DNA from: an uncultured Gammaproteobacteria bacterium
Lineage (GTDB): Bacteria > Pseudomonadota > Gammaproteobacteria > JAADHQ01
Assembly: GCA_947258655.1 (NCBI GenBank)
Contig: CAMYJD010000012.1
Coordinates: 13,323-77,322 of the forward strand
DNA length: 64,000 bases
Reading direction: 5' to 3'
How positions within the stretch are numbered: the stretch's first letter is position 1; every line of letters starts with the position of its first letter. Made by a program: the position numbers and the translations under genes. The notes beneath the pieces were generated by a model. It did no database searches. It saw nothing but the letters and a program-made list of their open reading frames with translations, and was not told where the DNA came from. This document shows positions 530 through 8,208 of the stretch, piece after piece.

Positions 530-1222
530 TCAGACATTGGGCCTGATCATGACCAGGTGGCGTTCGGCATCCAGGCCCGGCACTATCAATGGCTCCACCC
601 GCTCAATACGATAACCGTCGGGTAGGACCTCCAGCTCAGCCACAGGGTATGTGCCTTTCATGGCCAGAATCACGCCGTCGGCCGCGAGCAGTTGCGCCAC
701 CCCTGCAATCAGGTTTTCGATGGCACTATAGGCGCGTGCGGTGACCGTATCGAAACGCTGGTCGGGATGAAAGTTTTCTATCCTTTCCGTGATCACCGTG
801 ACATTTTGCAGCCCCAGTTCAGTCACCGCCTGCTGGATAAAACGGGTTTTCTTGTTGTTACTGTCGAGCAGGGTGAAGTAACATTCCGGATTGATGATGG
901 CCAGCGGTATACCCGGCAGGCCAGCGCCGCTGCCGACATCCAGTATCTGTTGTCCATGGAGATAGGGATTGATAACGATGGAATCGAGTATATGCCGCGT
1001 TACCATCAGCTTCATGTCGCGCACCGAGGTCAGGTTATAGGCCGCGTTCCATTTATGTAACAACTGAATAAACTGCACGAAATGACTGGCTGATCCTGCG
1101 GGCACACTGAAGGGCAGGGCAGGGAGCAGCTGTTCCAACATCTGCTGCAGTGCAGACGCATCAGTGGCTTCGTCCAGCGAACGCTTATGCCGGAACCGTT
1201 TCTGATTTCTGGACAGACTCAT
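530..1222 (-). CDS. rsmG: 16S rRNA (guanine527-N7)-methyltransferase RsmG/GidB
   Basis: 230 aa; GidB-like SAM-MTase motifs (LLDVGSGAGLPGIPLAI, LLDSNNKKTRF); classical partner of mnmG. Confidence 0.9.
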   Translation of the reverse strand: MSLSRNQKRFRHKRSLDEATDASALQQMLEQLLPALPFSVPAGSASHFVQFIQLLHKWNAAYNLTSVRDMKLMVTRHILDSIVINPYLHGQQILDVGSGAGLPGIPLAIINPECYFTLLDSNNKKTRFIQQAVTELGLQNVTVITERIENFHPDQRFDTVTARAYSAIENLIAGVAQLLAADGVILAMKGTYPVAELEVLPDGYRIERVEPLIVPGLDAERHLVMIRPNV

Positions 1223-1229
1223 CTAATCA

Positions 1230-1682
1230 TCAGGGTTTGGTAGCAATATCCGAGAATTTATTCAGTGCACCAGTCATTTTGGCGACGATCTCATCGCGAT
1301 CGCTGATGCCGTGACGATTAGCGAGAAATGCGGGATTATTGTACGTCAACCAGACCTTGCCGTTCTCATCCTGCCAGGCTAGGGCCTTCATGGGAAAATC
1401 AATACCGGAGGCCTGATTGCTGGTGAACATATGACTACCCAGTTTCGGGTTACCAAATATCAACAGTTCCGTTGGCCTGACATCGATGCCGACACCCTTT
1501 GCTTTTTTGTCATGGGCCCAGCGCAAGGCGACGGTAATGCCTTTCTTCTTCAATACATTTTCCAGTCTGTCTATGGTCTCCTTGACACTGAAAGCACTCG
1601 GTTTGGTGATCAATCCATGGTCTGCCTGAGCCAGCAGTGGCATACACAGAACCATTATCATCAGCAAAACTGTTTTTTTCAT
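1230..1682 (-). CDS. DUF302 domain secreted protein
   Basis: 150 aa, N-terminal signal peptide; LLIFGNPKLG...MKALAWQDENGKVWLTYNNP resembles the DUF302 signature. Confidence 0.65.
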   Translation of the reverse strand: MKKTVLLMIMVLCMPLLAQADHGLITKPSAFSVKETIDRLENVLKKKGITVALRWAHDKKAKGVGIDVRPTELLIFGNPKLGSHMFTSNQASGIDFPMKALAWQDENGKVWLTYNNPAFLANRHGISDRDEIVAKMTGALNKFSDIATKP

Positions 1683-1822
1683 GACTCTCTCCCATTTATC
1701 ATTGTTCGTCCAGATTAAGATGGCATGTCATGCATTTAGTTCATTTATAACATGCCAAGTAACATACTATTGCATTATGCATGCATTACCTCAACTCCTG
1801 TTTTTCAGGAAATAAGCACCGT

Positions 1823-2959
1823 CTAATAGTACATAAGACCGCTCTGGTCCAACCAGTATAGTCCCCCAACGGCCACGATGATTGCCGTTATCACTGCCAG
1901 TGCAATCTTGAATGGACTGTATGGACGCTCACCCTGGACAGTACCGTTCCTGCCATTAACGACAAAACGGTAGGTCTTGTCACGGAAACGGAAACTGGCC
2001 GACCACAACGGTAACAATACATGCTTGAATGTCGTGTCGCTGTGTTGCGTGTGCAGGTGAGTGATACGTTGCTGGTCACCACCGATATGCTGTCTCACAT
2101 CATTGCGAATGATATTCTCCATGACGGTTTGTGCAATTGTGAATCCTTCATCGAGCTCGACCTGGTATACCTCGCTGCTAAAACCGCTGATATAGGCCTC
2201 TGAGTACGGCACCAGATTTTCCAGGTCCCACGGCGCCAGCGAATCGGTGACTTTCCGCGGCAGGGTTTGTGTCGCGCCGATCAGTACATCATCGAAATGC
2301 CGTCGTGTGTTACCGCTGACCGGCGTCCAGCGTATGCGCGGTTGCCTACGTGTGCGTGTCACCGTGCGGCCGTTTTCAACCGTGGTATAACGCTGCTGTA
2401 CATAATAGATATCACCGCGCATGCCAGAGTAGGCGGTGCGGGTGTGACTATCATAGGTCCAGTAAGGTATATAGACCCCATGCAGTTTCGTTTCGTCACG
2501 CGCGAAGGTCTTCAACGCGCCAGGCGCGAACCATAGACCGGATATCCATTTTTTATAATATGCGCGCGCCTGTTTGTCAGTAATGCTGAACGGTAATAGT
2601 GCCTTCGCCTTGATCGGTTTGATATGGCTGGTACTGGTTATGACTGCAGTACCGCAAAACGGGCATTCACCGGCATGAATATGAGCATCGAGCTCGAACT
2701 GCGCGGCACACTGTACGCACTTGATAAAGGTCTTTTGCGCGGGAAGTGTGCGCGCACGCTGTAACTCGCGCAATGCCATATGGAAATCGATTTCGCGTAT
2801 CGGTTCACCCGTATGCACGATGGCATTGCGATGACCACAATAACTGCATTCGAGTTGGCCACTGCCGACCGCGTAGGTCAACATTGCGCCGCACTGTTCG
2901 CAGGGGTAACGTGTCTCGGTCAGCTCCCGCGTCGAGAGCTCACCTGTTGTTTTGTCCAT
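1823..2959 (-). CDS. double zinc-ribbon protein with C-terminal membrane anchor (uncharacterised family)
   Basis: Start chosen at MDKTTGEL directly after the stop of the upstream SPFH gene. Two CxxC...CxxC ribbons (CEQCGAM..CSYCGH; CVQCAAQ..CPFCGT), a roughly 250 aa unknown domain, and a terminal TM helix IALAVITAIIVAVGGLYWL. Confidence 0.6.
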   Translation of the reverse strand: MDKTTGELSTRELTETRYPCEQCGAMLTYAVGSGQLECSYCGHRNAIVHTGEPIREIDFHMALRELQRARTLPAQKTFIKCVQCAAQFELDAHIHAGECPFCGTAVITSTSHIKPIKAKALLPFSITDKQARAYYKKWISGLWFAPGALKTFARDETKLHGVYIPYWTYDSHTRTAYSGMRGDIYYVQQRYTTVENGRTVTRTRRQPRIRWTPVSGNTRRHFDDVLIGATQTLPRKVTDSLAPWDLENLVPYSEAYISGFSSEVYQVELDEGFTIAQTVMENIIRNDVRQHIGGDQQRITHLHTQHSDTTFKHVLLPLWSASFRFRDKTYRFVVNGRNGTVQGERPYSPFKIALAVITAIIVAVGGLYWLDQSGLMYY

Positions 2960-2961
2960 AT

Positions 2962-4062
2962 TCAGCTTTTCGGCAAGGGTGGTGGTTGGTCTGCCTGAAA
3001 CTGCGCCGTCAATGCAGCGACCTGTCCGGCCGGCTTCCATTGCGCCATGCCGTTCGCCCACACCAGCGTTTCGGCATTGATCTCACCATTCATGATCCTG
3101 GCCCGTACCTCATTGACACTGAACGGACCACTGGCTTCGCCATTCACGGCGACATGGTATTGCGTCTCGATTGGCAATGGTGGTGGCGTAGCCGCACTGC
3201 TTGAACCGCTATCCATGTCCCGTGCCAGTTTATTGGCCATCGCAAAACCGACACCGAGACCAATACCATCTGCGGCGCCACCGCCCGGGTTATCAGCGGC
3301 GGCCTCCATTGCGGCACCGGTTTGATATTTCAGGTATTTATCCAGATTACCTATCACACCCATACTGGTGCGCTTGTCCAGCGCCTGTTCCACGGTCGGT
3401 GGCAGGGATATATTTTCCACCAGCATATTGGCCAGTTCGAGACCGTACTCGGCAAATTCCGGGGCAATGCGCTGGGTCAGGAATTCGCCCAGCTGGTCAT
3501 AGTTGGCTGCCATATCCAGCACCGGGATATTGGCCGATGCGACAACTGTGGCAAAGCGTGACGTGATCAGGTTACGTAACTGGTCACTGATTTCATCGGT
3601 TGTGAACTGACCATCGGTACCGACGATCTCACGTATGAACTTGAGTGCATCGTTAATACGAACAGCATAGGTGCCGAAGCCGCGCAAACGCACCGCACCG
3701 AATTCGCTATCGCGTAACATCAACGGATTTTTCGTTCCCCATTTCAGATCAACAAAACGCTTGCTATTGCAGAAATAGACCTCGGCCTTGAATGGACTGT
3801 TAAAGCCATGATCCCAGTGTTGCAGGGTCGTCAGGATCGGCAGGTTTTTGGTCTCCAGTTCATAAATGCCCGGCGTCAGTACATCGGCGACCTCGCCTTC
3901 ATTGACGAATACCGCCACCTGGGATTCACGCACAGTCAGTTTGGCGCCGTATTTGATTTCATTGCCATAGCGCTCGAATCGATACACCATTGTGTCCTGT
4001 GTGTCATCGGTCCATTCGATAACATCAACAAATTCACCAAACAGTTTGTCAAACAATCCCAT
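2962..4062 (-). CDS. SPFH/band-7 domain protein with Pro-rich linker and C-terminal GYF-like (DUF4339-type) domain
   Basis: 366 aa; N-terminal MGLFDKLFGEF plus SPFH-like core; PPPLP linker; C-terminal YHVAVNGEASGPFSVNEVRARIMNGEINAETLVWANGMAQWKPAGQV. Confidence 0.7.
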   Translation of the reverse strand: MGLFDKLFGEFVDVIEWTDDTQDTMVYRFERYGNEIKYGAKLTVRESQVAVFVNEGEVADVLTPGIYELETKNLPILTTLQHWDHGFNSPFKAEVYFCNSKRFVDLKWGTKNPLMLRDSEFGAVRLRGFGTYAVRINDALKFIREIVGTDGQFTTDEISDQLRNLITSRFATVVASANIPVLDMAANYDQLGEFLTQRIAPEFAEYGLELANMLVENISLPPTVEQALDKRTSMGVIGNLDKYLKYQTGAAMEAAADNPGGGAADGIGLGVGFAMANKLARDMDSGSSSAATPPPLPIETQYHVAVNGEASGPFSVNEVRARIMNGEINAETLVWANGMAQWKPAGQVAALTAQFQADQPPPLPKS

Positions 4063-4081
4063 TTCAGTTCTCCTGTTACGT

Positions 4082-5203
4082 TTAGCCAGGTCTGCTGGAT
4101 ATGGTCGTTGCCGCCGCGGTTCCCGTTGCGCTGTGCAATTCGCTTTCCAGTTTCATTAAGGTTGATTCGGCCTCACGATGATGCTGTTGACCTTCAGTAA
4201 CAATGTGCAGGCTTTCTTCCACGCTGGCAATAAGCTCCTTGTTGGCACGCCTGATAGATTGCGCAGCATGCAGCTTTTTGTTGTTTTGCACCAGTAACTC
4301 CTGGCTCTGTTTTATTGCACCTGCAGCGTGACCTGCCTCGACCATACTACGATGGATGCTCACCGCCTCGGTGAGTTGCTGACGCCAGATCGATACCGTA
4401 TTCAGCAGTGTGGTATCGATCTTGTCAACCAGTTGCTTGTCGTTCTGCTGCACTATACGGATACCGGGAATACCCTGCAACGACACCATACGTGTCAATG
4501 TCAGGTCCTGTATGCGCCGTTGCAGATCGTTGCGGCCCATGCGCAGGTCGCGCAGTGCCTGATCTTCGACAACAGTCTTTGTCGAGCCTGTTGCCTGTTC
4601 CAGTTCGGGCAACATATCCGCGTCAATAATCCGCAACTGTTCTTGCGCCGCACTGATGTAGAGCTCGAGCTCCTGAAAATATTCAAGGTTGGTCATATAG
4701 AGCTTGTCGAGCGTGGCAATATGACGCAACAGATTGGTCTTGTCTCTTTCCAGCTTATCCGTTATGGAATCGATTTGTCTGCGCACCCTTTCATACTGCT
4801 GTATGAACCTGGCGACCGGTGTAGCGCGACCAAATAACCTTGCCAGCAGACGCTTGAAGAATCCGGGCTTTGGCGCCTGATCCAGAACGTCCAGATCAAA
4901 ACTGTGTAACACCGTGACAATCTCACTGAGGGATTGACCAGCAGAACCGAGGTTGTTGTCACGCACCCCTTCGAGCAGACTGTCCGTAATGGTCGCCAAC
5001 TGTTGCTGGGCCTGGCTGCCAAAGAACATGATCGATTGACTGCTGCTAATGTCTATGTCATGCATCAGGCGCGCGATGATTTGCTTTTGCCCGGGTTCGG
5101 CCTCGGCATAGGCAACAGGCTCGCTATCGAGCGTGGGTAAATCGCCCGTAGCAGATACAGCTGCATGAGGCGGTAGTGTATTCATGCCCTGATCAATGGT
5201 CAT
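4082..5203 (-). CDS. TelA-like (toxic anion resistance family) protein
   Basis: 373 aa soluble protein with long coiled-coil segments, size and composition like TelA/YaaN; sits next to an XpaC-like gene as in the Bacillus xpaC-yaaN pair. Confidence 0.5.
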   Translation of the reverse strand: MTIDQGMNTLPPHAAVSATGDLPTLDSEPVAYAEAEPGQKQIIARLMHDIDISSSQSIMFFGSQAQQQLATITDSLLEGVRDNNLGSAGQSLSEIVTVLHSFDLDVLDQAPKPGFFKRLLARLFGRATPVARFIQQYERVRRQIDSITDKLERDKTNLLRHIATLDKLYMTNLEYFQELELYISAAQEQLRIIDADMLPELEQATGSTKTVVEDQALRDLRMGRNDLQRRIQDLTLTRMVSLQGIPGIRIVQQNDKQLVDKIDTTLLNTVSIWRQQLTEAVSIHRSMVEAGHAAGAIKQSQELLVQNNKKLHAAQSIRRANKELIASVEESLHIVTEGQQHHREAESTLMKLESELHSATGTAAATTISSRPG

Positions 5204-5265
5204 GTATATGCGCCCTGATAATTCATTGTGAGCAGTGCTGATGATTTTATATCAGCATGATTCAT

Positions 5266-6108
5266 TCACACTATCCCTTCCTTTTCCAGTTGCATTTGCA
5301 ATACCTCGATCTGGACATCCAGTTCAGTGGCATTATTTTCCATTAGCTTTTTCTGTTGTTCGGCTATGACTGTTTCAATCGTCGCCAGCACACGCCTGAA
5401 ATTTTCATCCAGTTCGCTCGATTCCATATGCTCGTGAGCGCGTGCATAACCGCTCGTGACTTGCTGTGCTCCGTCCAGATACACCTTGAGGAACTTGCGT
5501 GCACGCCTGGCATCACGCGGGTCTTCTTCGATAGTCTGCAGAATATTTCGTGTTTGTTTGACGATGCGCCGCAGCCGTTGCCTGAGTTCCTGGTTGTTGA
5601 TTCTGGCGCGCGCTTCTTCAATGCTCTGAATTTTAGTCTCCGCCTCGTCAAGCAGGTCCAGTACTTCTTCGGAGGTAATCCCGACTGCAGCAATCCCGGT
5701 GCCATCGCGCGCCGGGTCAAAACCGTAATACAGATAAAAACCGGTCAATGCGGCAATGCCGAGCAATAGACTGACAATAATGCCATTACCGATGGCCAGC
5801 CATGAGGTGATGGCGACTGCGATACCAAGCAGGATGGCGCCGAGCGTTTTATAGGGCAGGGTACTGGTACGCCGTACAATCTTGCGTTGTTTTGCCCGTG
5901 CTTCAATTGCAAAGCCCTTACGTGCAAGGGTTGCCGCGATCATGGCCAGGATAAATCCCGCGCCACTACCGGTTGCCAGTGTCAGGTTATCATTCAATAA
6001 TCCCCGTAATGCGGCCAGTAACAACGGGAAGGGCAGGATATACAGCAGGATACCGCGCAGCTGGTAGCGTGACGGTTTGATGCTGTCCGGTTTGTAGCGC
6101 CTGGCCAT
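5266..6108 (-). CDS. XpaC-like membrane protein (N-terminal TM helices, C-terminal TelA-related helical domain)
   Basis: 280 aa; four predicted TM helices followed by a coiled-coil region containing ARKFLKVYLDGAQQV. Confidence 0.45.
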   Translation of the reverse strand: MARRYKPDSIKPSRYQLRGILLYILPFPLLLAALRGLLNDNLTLATGSGAGFILAMIAATLARKGFAIEARAKQRKIVRRTSTLPYKTLGAILLGIAVAITSWLAIGNGIIVSLLLGIAALTGFYLYYGFDPARDGTGIAAVGITSEEVLDLLDEAETKIQSIEEARARINNQELRQRLRRIVKQTRNILQTIEEDPRDARRARKFLKVYLDGAQQVTSGYARAHEHMESSELDENFRRVLATIETVIAEQQKKLMENNATELDVQIEVLQMQLEKEGIV

Positions 6109-6123
6109 GATGCTAATAATGCC

Positions 6124-6213
6124 CTAGATAGAAAACAGCGCCTGCCATGAGATCAGGCCAATGGTTGCCAGTAGCAATATCAGGCCAATGGTTTTTTTCA
6201 GCATTAGCGGCAT
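6124..6213 (-). CDS. 29-aa single-TM micro-protein at head of cassette
   Basis: rc ORF MPLMLKKTIGLILLLATIGLISWQALFSI preceded by GGGGGAG Shine-Dalgarno 5 nt upstream; not in ORF track (too short). Confidence 0.3.
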   Translation of the reverse strand: MPLMLKKTIGLILLLATIGLISWQALFSI

Positions 6214-6327
6214 ATACACTCCCCCGAATTAAATCTATTGACGATCATACTTAAAGCACAGCTATATATTAAAGATAACAAGCGTTAATTATTGTAATAA
6301 TATTACGTTGTATTGATAAGCGGCCTG

Positions 6328-8208
6328 TTATGCTGAGCGTCGCTGTTTCTTCAAATGTACAAGTAGCAACGATACCGCTGCCGGCGTCATACCCGGGATG
6401 CGGCTGGCCTGACCAATGGTCAGTGGCCGGGTCTTGTTTAATTTTTCAGTGACTTCGAAAGACAGCCCCCTGACAGTACTGTAATCCAGCGTCGCGGGAA
6501 TCCTGGTCTCTTCATGTTTGCGGTGTCTGGCGATCTCTTCCTGCTGACGATTGATATAACCGGAATACTTGATCTGGATCTCTACCTGTTCGGCAACCTT
6601 CGGGTCGGTCACCGCAGTACCTGCGCCTGGCAGGGTCATCAGTTTCTGATAGCTGACCTCGGGGCGACTGAGCAATTCGTCCAGCCTCGCCGCGCGTGTC
6701 AGGGCCTGCCCCAATACCTCGCAAACAATATCAGCAGGGACCTTTTCCGGGGCAATACTGGTACTGCGCAGGCGCTTTTTCTCGGACTCGACGGCTTGCT
6801 GTTTTTGTTCAAAGGCATCCCAGCGATGATCATCCACAAGACCGAGCTCACGACCTGTCGGTGTCAGGCGCAGATCGGCATTGTCTTCTCGCAGTAACAA
6901 ACGATACTCGGCCCGGCTCGTGAACATGCGGTAGGGTTCTGCGGTACCACGCGTAATCAGGTCATCGATCAGTACACCGATATAGGCCTGGTCGCGGCGC
7001 GGACACCAGGGTTCCTGTTCACGGGTATACTGGCAGGCATTGATACCGGCCACGAGACCCTGGGCCGCCGCCTCTTCATAGCCTGTCGTACCGTTGATCT
7101 GACCGGCAAAGAACAGGCCATCGATGAATTTCGTCTCTAGCGACGGCTTCAGGTCGCGCGGATCGAAAAAATCATATTCAATCGCATAACCCGGGCGGGT
7201 GATGTGCGCATTCTCGAATCCCTTCATCGAACGCACCAGTTCATACTGGACATCGAACGGCAGACTGGTGGAAATTCCGTTCGGATAGACCTCGTGGGTC
7301 TGCAGGCCTTCGGGCTCGACGAAGATCTGGTGCGATTGCTTGTCGGCGAAACGCACGACCTTGTCCTCGATAGAAGGGCAATAGCGCGGGCCGACACCAT
7401 CGATGACACCGGTATACATCGGCGAGCGGTCCATACCGGAACGAATGATATCGTGCGTCTGTTCATTGGTATGGGTGATGTAACAGGGAATCTGTTCGGG
7501 GTGTTCATCGGCATGCCCCATATACGAGAACACCGGCACCGGCATATCGCCCGGCTGTTCTTCCAGCACGCTGTAATCGATACTGCGCCCATCGATGCGT
7601 GGCGGTGTGCCGGTCTTCAGGCGATCGACACGGAAAGGCAGCTCACGCAGGCGCTGTGACAGCGCATTGGCTGGCGGGTCACCGGCACGTCCACCCTGAT
7701 AATGGGACAGGCCGATATGAATCAGGCCACCGAGAAATGTACCCACCGTCAACACAACCGAGCGCGCTGAAAAACGCAGGCCCATCTGTGTCACAACACC
7801 GACAACCCGGTCCTGATCGACAATCAGGTCGTCAACGGCCTGCTGGAACAGACTCAGGTTCGGCTGGTTTTCCAGCGTCTCCCTGACCGCCTGTTTATAT
7901 AACACCCGGTCTGCCTGTGCGCGCGTCGCTCGTACGGCCGGCCCCTTACGGGCATTCAATGTACGGAACTGGATGCCGCCGAGATCGGCGGCATGGGCCA
8001 TGACACCGCCCAGCGCATCCACTTCCTTGACCAGGTGACCCTTGCCTATGCCGCCAATGGCTGGATTACAGCTCATTTGGCCCAGCGTTTCGATATTATG
8101 GGTCAGCAGCAGCGTCCTGGCACCCATTCGTGCAGACGCAAGCGCCGCCTCGGTACCGGCATGACCACCACCAATCACAATGACATCGAAATCTTGCTGA
8201 TATTTCAT
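6328..8208 (-). CDS. mnmG: tRNA uridine-5-carboxymethylaminomethyl modification enzyme MnmG/GidA
   Basis: 626 aa; FAD motif [15 protein letters not shown]; full-length GidA architecture. Confidence 0.95.

Follow-up and report, generated by a model that had tools for sequence, protein, structure and literature searches.

Gene arrangement of the locus

The gene under study lies on the minus strand of the window, by which we mean the whole stretch of 64,000 nucleotides analysed here. It is the last of four co-directional genes, ordered XpaC-like, TelA, SPFH (with a GYF domain) and YdjG-like and separated by spacers of 62, 19 and 2 nt. The features of this cassette are as follows.

5266..6108, minus strand: XpaC-like (Halogen_Hydrol) multi-TM protein (Pfam PF10112, 7.4e-32; multiple hydrophobic windows)
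4082..5203, minus strand: TelA family protein (toxic anion resistance), soluble and helical (Pfam TelA, 3.2e-71; no TM segment)
2962..4062, minus strand: SPFH protein, soluble, with Band_7_1 at aa 26-236 and GYF_2 at aa 302-351 (Pfam, 1.8e-101 and 3.2e-19)
2957..2964, minus strand: SPFH/ydjG-like gene junction, TGA-AT-ATG (read from the sequence)
1823..2959, minus strand: ydjG-like gene (YdjG/SamG family), a 378-aa ORF

The ydjG-like reading frame runs from an ATG at 2959-2957 to a TAG stop at 1825-1823. The ORF listing also holds a longer version that starts from a GTG at 3061, but we favour the ATG, because homologues of 377 aa align from M1 and over 100% of the query. Judged by its conservation, this is a real coding sequence, since one search returned 6238 homologues at E ≤ 1e-3 and an exhaustive one 6683 clusters at 50% identity, of which 3897 reach E ≤ 1e-10. 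The first-pass annotation had placed the ATG directly after the SPFH stop codon. This was close but not literally so, as two nucleotides separate the ATG from the TGA at 2964-2962. Reading of the 25 nt 5′ of the ATG revealed no Shine-Dalgarno-like GGAGG, and this absence and the 2-nt spacer together make translational coupling to the SPFH gene plausible. The spacer is likewise 2 nt in a 79%-identical relative (locus L006), 1 nt in Paracoccus and 3 nt in Vibrio, and in 37 of 61 related loci the first Cys codon lies at most 120 nt from the SPFH stop. Coupling is nevertheless not a family-wide rule, because Tsukamurella has a spacer of 161 nt and Comamonas one of 291 nt.

A promoter and terminator scan of the locus gave nothing above the shuffled expectation. 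The ydjG-like stop is followed by a 140-nt AT-rich spacer (1683..1822) with repeated ATGCAT motifs and an 11-nt inverted repeat (1721-1731 / 1747-1757). The intergenic hairpins in this region were not significant (folding z -1.7); the repeat could serve the cassette as a terminator or the DUF302 gene as an operator. The cassette and this DUF302 gene are wedged between mnmG (6328..8208) and rsmG (530..1222), all within 530..8208 on the minus strand; mnmG and rsmG are normally adjacent. The same gap in L006 additionally holds a DUF4178-DUF4178-DUF350-spermine-synthase set, a gene group that has been linked to PspA systems (PMC11237479).

Protein architecture and relation to YdjG/SamG

The ydjG-like protein contains exactly eight cysteines (20, 23, 38, 41, 81, 84, 99 and 102), arranged as two CxxC-x14-CxxC motifs that are invariant in 115 homologues and align with the cysteines of YdjG. 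These motifs bear out the two zinc ribbons proposed from the sequence at the outset, and the protein can be divided into four parts.

2819..2908, minus strand: zinc ribbon 1 (aa 18-47; C20, C23, C38, C41), from the Cys positions and AF2 strands 26-30, 35-38 and 44-46
2639..2731, minus strand: zinc ribbon 2 (aa 77-107; C81, C84, C99, C102), from the Cys positions and their invariance
1916..2626, minus strand: body domain (aa 112-348), in which helices pack against very long antiparallel beta-hairpins
1850..1906, minus strand: C-terminal TM helix (aa 352-370) with an 8-residue tail, from a maximal Kyte-Doolittle 19-residue mean of 2.39 and AF2 helix 349-373

The segment at aa 352-370 is the only hydrophobic one in the protein, which has no signal peptide. 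It is flanked by basic residues before the helix (R345, K351) and an acidic one after it (D371). The single C-terminal helix of the first-pass annotation is thus recovered here, and it is present in all 115 aligned homologues, with a median of five residues beyond it. An AlphaFold2 model built with the 115-sequence alignment (pLDDT 94.3, pTM 0.88) places two three-stranded ribbons linked by a helix at the N-terminus, followed by helices 128-140 and 147-152, a very long beta-hairpin (160-195 / 198-228), helix 269-292, strands 296-325, 328-335 and 341-343, and the terminal helix 349-373. The tip of the hairpin is basic (RTVTRTRRQPRIR, aa 198-210).

The body, an alpha/beta domain of about 240 aa, had been described as carrying no recognisable motif, and this description holds. 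When Pfam, NCBIfam, PHROGs and PADLOC were searched with the protein, only zinc-ribbon fragments were returned, short and at or below threshold, and no model from these collections matches aa ~110-348. A Pfam scan of all 115 aligned members gave the same picture, as none of the 25 most frequent of the 36 families found, almost all of them zinc-ribbon or zinc-finger models, covers the body. The family has neither a Pfam nor an NCBIfam model, and in sequence searches of the PDB the protein alone and the profile of its family both matched ribbons only, leaving the family without a solved structure or relative.

As the Band_7_1 SPFH neighbour pointed to the pspA-ydjGHI operon of Bacillus subtilis, we searched for a relation to that operon, using a ydjG sequence retrieved from Bacillus genomes through the primer sequence printed in PMC8581546. 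BLASTP against YdjG of B. stercoris gave an E value of 2e-32 at 24% identity (aa 18-353 against 5-316), a span that extends from ribbon 1 through the juxtamembrane motif. Against the HMM of the 115-member family YdjG reached 216 bits, covering HMM positions 12-355 (E 3.7e-68, computed for a single target). Among the ORFs of the 64-kb window YdjG matched the gene at 1823..2959 only. Residues invariant between the family and YdjG include, besides the eight cysteines, F124, W138, P146, Y163, P165, G259, G294, P317, N335, G339, G343, P346 and K351. All the defining features of YdjG/SamG that we looked for were found here, namely two Cys4 ribbons, a homologous central body, a C-terminal TM segment and a neighbouring gene for a Band_7_1 SPFH protein homologous to the YdjG-associated one. 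The two proteins differ in that their identity is only 24%, and the body hairpin of the proteobacterial protein is about 15 residues longer than that of YdjG and basic (alignment columns around aa 190-205).

The homology and the shared architecture are established. By sequence comparison, the gene at 1823..2959 encodes a proteobacterial member of the YdjG/SamG family, which is large and already described. The label "uncharacterised" given in the first-pass annotation is therefore wrong at the family level, as YdjG has been characterised, and its published architecture comprises two ZnRs, a domain related to YpeB and a TM segment (PMC11237479). The YpeB/PepSY relationship proposed for the YdjG body is weakly echoed in our model, rather than demonstrated by it.

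Homologues carry source names such as "hypothetical", "zinc ribbon domain-containing" and "TFIIB-type zinc ribbon-containing", and also the misleading "primosomal protein N'" and "RPC12/RpoP". A PriA identity was rejected, as there is no helicase core, the matches are Cys-rich ribbon matches of about 25 residues, and NF004066 scored 11.7 bits against a cut-off of 813. Identity with RpoP/RPC12, a protein of about 45-50 aa, was rejected at 29.5 bits against a cut-off of 72, with the match limited to ribbon 2.

The same names bear on a reading in which the protein is a membrane-tethered nucleic-acid-binding factor, its TFIIB/RpoP/PriA-like ribbons contacting DNA, RNA or RNA polymerase. Ribbon 1 does show weak matches to TFIIB, PriA-CRR and HypA zinc ribbons, ribbon 2 shows RpoP-type matches (family profile against the PDB, E 9e-4), and the basic hairpin tip would suit such a role. 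However, these matches are confined to ribbons of about 30 residues and stay below the curated RpoP and PriA cut-offs, helicase and polymerase domains are missing, zinc ribbons are generic protein-interaction modules, and the conserved neighbour is a membrane scaffold rather than a nucleic-acid enzyme. We consider this reading very unlikely.

An enzyme with its active site in the unrecognised body is less probable still, to the point of being scarcely credible. It would draw on a DIGGDxQ motif (aa 291-297) whose conservation among the proteobacterial members is 90% or more, but YdjG lacks this motif and has TFSGYTS in its place. Conservation across the 115 homologues amounts to the eight invariant cysteines and about 20 near-invariant positions. 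The invariant residues are of the types Cys, Gly, Pro, Trp, Tyr, Phe, Asn and Lys, and no His, Ser, Glu or Asp is invariant across the family once YdjG is included in the alignment. Moreover, the middle domain has no sequence or fold match above noise to any enzyme family, which agrees with the first-pass view of it.

The SPFH partner and the conserved gene pair

The protein encoded upstream is homologous to YdjI/SamI (BLASTP E 1e-35; Band_7_1 in both), from which it differs at the C-terminus, where it has a GYF_2 domain and YdjI a zinc ribbon. It has no hydrophobic segment, hence no membrane anchor of its own; within the cassette, membrane segments are found in the XpaC-like protein (several) and the YdjG-like protein only, the SPFH and TelA proteins having none. 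Two PPPLP motifs (aa 293-297 and 360-364) flank the GYF_2 domain. GYF domains bind proline-rich peptides, and for this reason the motifs could be a ligand for the same or a neighbouring subunit that drives oligomerisation. An SPFH + GYF architecture was listed already in 2007 (PMC2034487).

To assess the pairing we surveyed 80 metagenome loci and scored the 56 of them that had at least 1.3 kb of flank. An SPFH gene lay directly upstream of the ydjG-like gene, on the same strand, in 49. The remaining seven (L014, L018, L020, L021, L022, L026 and L038) had no SPFH gene within the fetched flanks, and so the YdjG-like family occurs also unpaired; the unpaired gene of L018, for example, neighbours genes for a DegP-like protease and for PKD and beta-helix proteins. 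In annotated genomes an SPFH gene followed by the zinc-ribbon gene was found in Comamonas, Tsukamurella, Enterococcus (where a TPM gene follows), Vibrio and Paracoccus (with TelA and DUF2927), so that the pair is represented in Alpha-, Beta- and Gammaproteobacteria, Actinomycetota and Bacillota. One locus, L066, has tandem YdjG-like paralogues (2769-3908 and 3920-5032) after a single SPFH gene, the first being far more divergent (E 2e-37 against 6e-116).

The accessory genes are less constant. TelA with XpaC upstream was found in 23 of the 33 related loci having at least 4.5 kb of flank. The XpaC-like gene is conserved with TelA in L005, L006 and metagenome loci, and the relatives L005 and L006 keep the whole four-gene cassette with different flanks. 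In many alpha- and gammaproteobacterial loci telA and the SPFH gene are separated by a DUF2927 gene (L029 7844-8797, L070 7891-8844, L048 2852-3814 and L091 4726-5754; about 317 aa, Pfam E down to 7e-63), which is absent from this window. A TPM-domain protein is present in the Bacillus and Enterococcus loci. Searches with Bacillus seeds, whose sensitivity is limited, found neither PspA nor TPM/YdjH in the 64-kb window or the 80 related loci; YdjH was thus missing from the cassette as well, and Pfam detected no PspA among the cassette genes. The gene pairing is established, and because the pair recurs across loci and taxa while the accessory genes vary, the SPFH-YdjG pair is the conserved core, to which PspA/TPM in Bacillota or TelA/XpaC/DUF2927 in Proteobacteria are interchangeable additions.

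Two known operon types invite comparison with the cassette. In Bacillus, ydjG is the second gene of pspA-ydjGHI (pspA-samGHI), with the order G-H-I, whereas here the SPFH gene precedes G. XpaC is the usual partner of TelA. The two upstream genes of the cassette are clear members of the XpaC-TelA pairs known as xpaC-yaaN in B. subtilis, lmo1966-67 in Listeria and xpaC-telA in E. faecium, with which they share the combination of one multi-TM and one soluble helical protein. These pairs form a separate operon in Bacillota, while here the pair is joined head-to-tail to the SPFH/YdjG-like genes, elsewhere often with DUF2927 in between. We found no description of this joined cassette in the literature.

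The pairing of an SPFH protein with a membrane protein could also be read as an anti-phage or abortive-infection module with a membrane effector. On a Vibrio coralliilyticus plasmid (NZ_CP048695.1; L090, 626-8062) the SPFH/YdjG-like pair, with its 3-nt spacer, is found by itself close to TIR-domain, TRAFs-binding-domain and phospholipase-D-like genes, in a neighbourhood that resembles a defence island. Distant homologues (21-26% identity) occur in phage-labelled records, among them MT835641.1, OR846590.1 and OR846934.1, which are unannotated and were deposited as Enterococcus or Listeria phages or from human faeces. Foldseek, too, gave weak matches to long-hairpin pore formers, but these are not significant (E at least 0.01, TM about 0.1), and the long hairpin is polar and basic rather than amphipathic. 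PADLOC provided no credible match for any of the four cassette proteins (none for SPFH, TelA and XpaC; a weak zinc-ribbon overlap with PDC-S64, E 6.8e-4, for the ydjG-like protein). In addition, the genes that enclose the cassette here, mnmG and rsmG, are housekeeping genes, and the other contexts are ordinary chromosomal neighbourhoods. A role in defence thus appears highly improbable.

A proposed membrane receptor for the SPFH protein

The ydjG-like protein is probably a membrane receptor or adaptor for the SPFH protein encoded upstream, acting in a membrane- or envelope-stress module with the XpaC-like protein and TelA; we rate the sensor, nucleic-acid-binding, defence and enzyme readings below it. 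Here the topology, the direct binding of the SPFH protein and the stress role are extrapolated from B. subtilis genetics and the phenotypes published for TelA/XpaC. A single transcript would yield the SPFH and ydjG-like proteins in a fixed ratio. The latter would sit in the inner membrane as a tail-anchored, N-in protein, its two Cys4 ribbons and body of about 240 aa facing the cytoplasm, a topology suggested by the Cys4 ribbons, by the basic residues before and the acidic residue after the helix, and by the lack of any signal peptide. It would then receive the soluble SPFH oligomer at the cytoplasmic membrane face, and the XpaC-like membrane protein and soluble TelA, transcribed together with the pair, would complete the module.

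Published work on B. subtilis (PMC8581546) describes YdjI as soluble and reports that deletion of ydjG or ydjH abolishes the membrane foci of YdjI and PspA. In that organism YdjG is needed for a soluble, flotillin-like SPFH protein to stay at the membrane under envelope stress. A 2026 preprint describes SamG as a membrane anchor for SamI. The tail-anchored partnership with the SPFH scaffold that the topology had suggested in the first-pass annotation gains support from the homology to YdjG/SamG, from the homology of the neighbour to YdjI/SamI and from this dependence of the YdjI foci on ydjG. A joint role in membrane stress would fit as well, because xpaC-yaaN(telA) and pspA-ydjGHI are both sigma-W regulon operons in B. 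subtilis (PMC3498285) and TelA/XpaC influence tolerance to nisin, tellurite and daptomycin.

Several points count against the anchor reading. The two-hybrid contacts reported in the accessible part of the B. subtilis study are YdjG-YdjH, YdjH-YdjI and YdjH-PspA; a direct YdjG-SPFH contact is not among them, and YdjH is named as the likely anchor (PMC8581546). As YdjH is absent here and the reported contacts run through it, direct binding of the SPFH protein by the ydjG-like protein can only be proposed. The lack of YdjH and PspA, the 24% identity, the different SPFH C-terminus and the seven unpaired loci of 56 were weighed likewise.

The logic of an SPFH scaffold with a dedicated membrane partner is familiar from SPFH-NfeD pairs (E. 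coli QmcA-YbbJ) and from HflK/C-FtsH, where the SPFH oligomer is encoded beside a small membrane partner. NfeD has an OB fold and N-terminal TM helices, and the SPFH proteins of these systems have a membrane anchor of their own, unlike the Band_7_1 protein here. The partners in these systems have no sequence or fold relation to the ydjG-like protein; SPFH-NfeD-type pairs are cited as a parallel in the 2026 preprint.

The B. subtilis data also suggest a different division of labour, in which the ydjG-like protein senses or passes on a membrane-stress signal through its cytoplasmic ribbons and body and the SPFH protein serves as a brake, as has been proposed for SamI acting on SamGH. According to the 2026 preprint SamGH is a stress-sensing complex restrained by SamI, and when SamI is lost, stress signalling becomes constitutive, in a way that requires SamH and that SamG modulates. 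Cell-shape defects result from deletion of ydjG or ydjH, and not from deletion of ydjI or pspA, in the earlier study (PMC8581546), and a tether would hardly seem to need so large and highly conserved a cytoplasmic body. However, the signalling phenotype needs SamH, which is absent here, the periplasmic tail of only about 5-8 residues leaves no external sensing domain, and neither the protein nor the cassette showed an output domain (kinase, HTH or cyclase). We therefore regard a sensor or signalling component as unlikely, and retain the membrane receptor as the preferred reading.

A bolder version of the receptor reading, doubtful at present, would make the proteobacterial SPFH/YdjG-like pair the core of an envelope-stress machine that needs neither PspA nor YdjH. 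The zinc-ribbon protein would bind the SPFH oligomer directly, TelA, with XpaC holding it, would stand in for PspA as effector, and the body would be an SPFH receptor of new fold.

These results overturn nothing known. The YdjG/SamG family had been described; we found no earlier description of the operon variant in which its gene and that of the SPFH partner are joined to XpaC-TelA. SPFH proteins are widespread membrane scaffolds, and membrane recruitment of the soluble Band_7_1 type is known from one organism only, while the YdjG/SamG-type partner belongs to a very large family spread over several phyla. The practical value lies in better annotation of this large family, for which no model exists. 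A proteobacterial locus that lacks YdjH and PspA would offer a simpler, tractable system for direct binding between a YdjG-type protein and its SPFH partner, and the same system bears on whether TelA is functionally tied to SPFH scaffolds.
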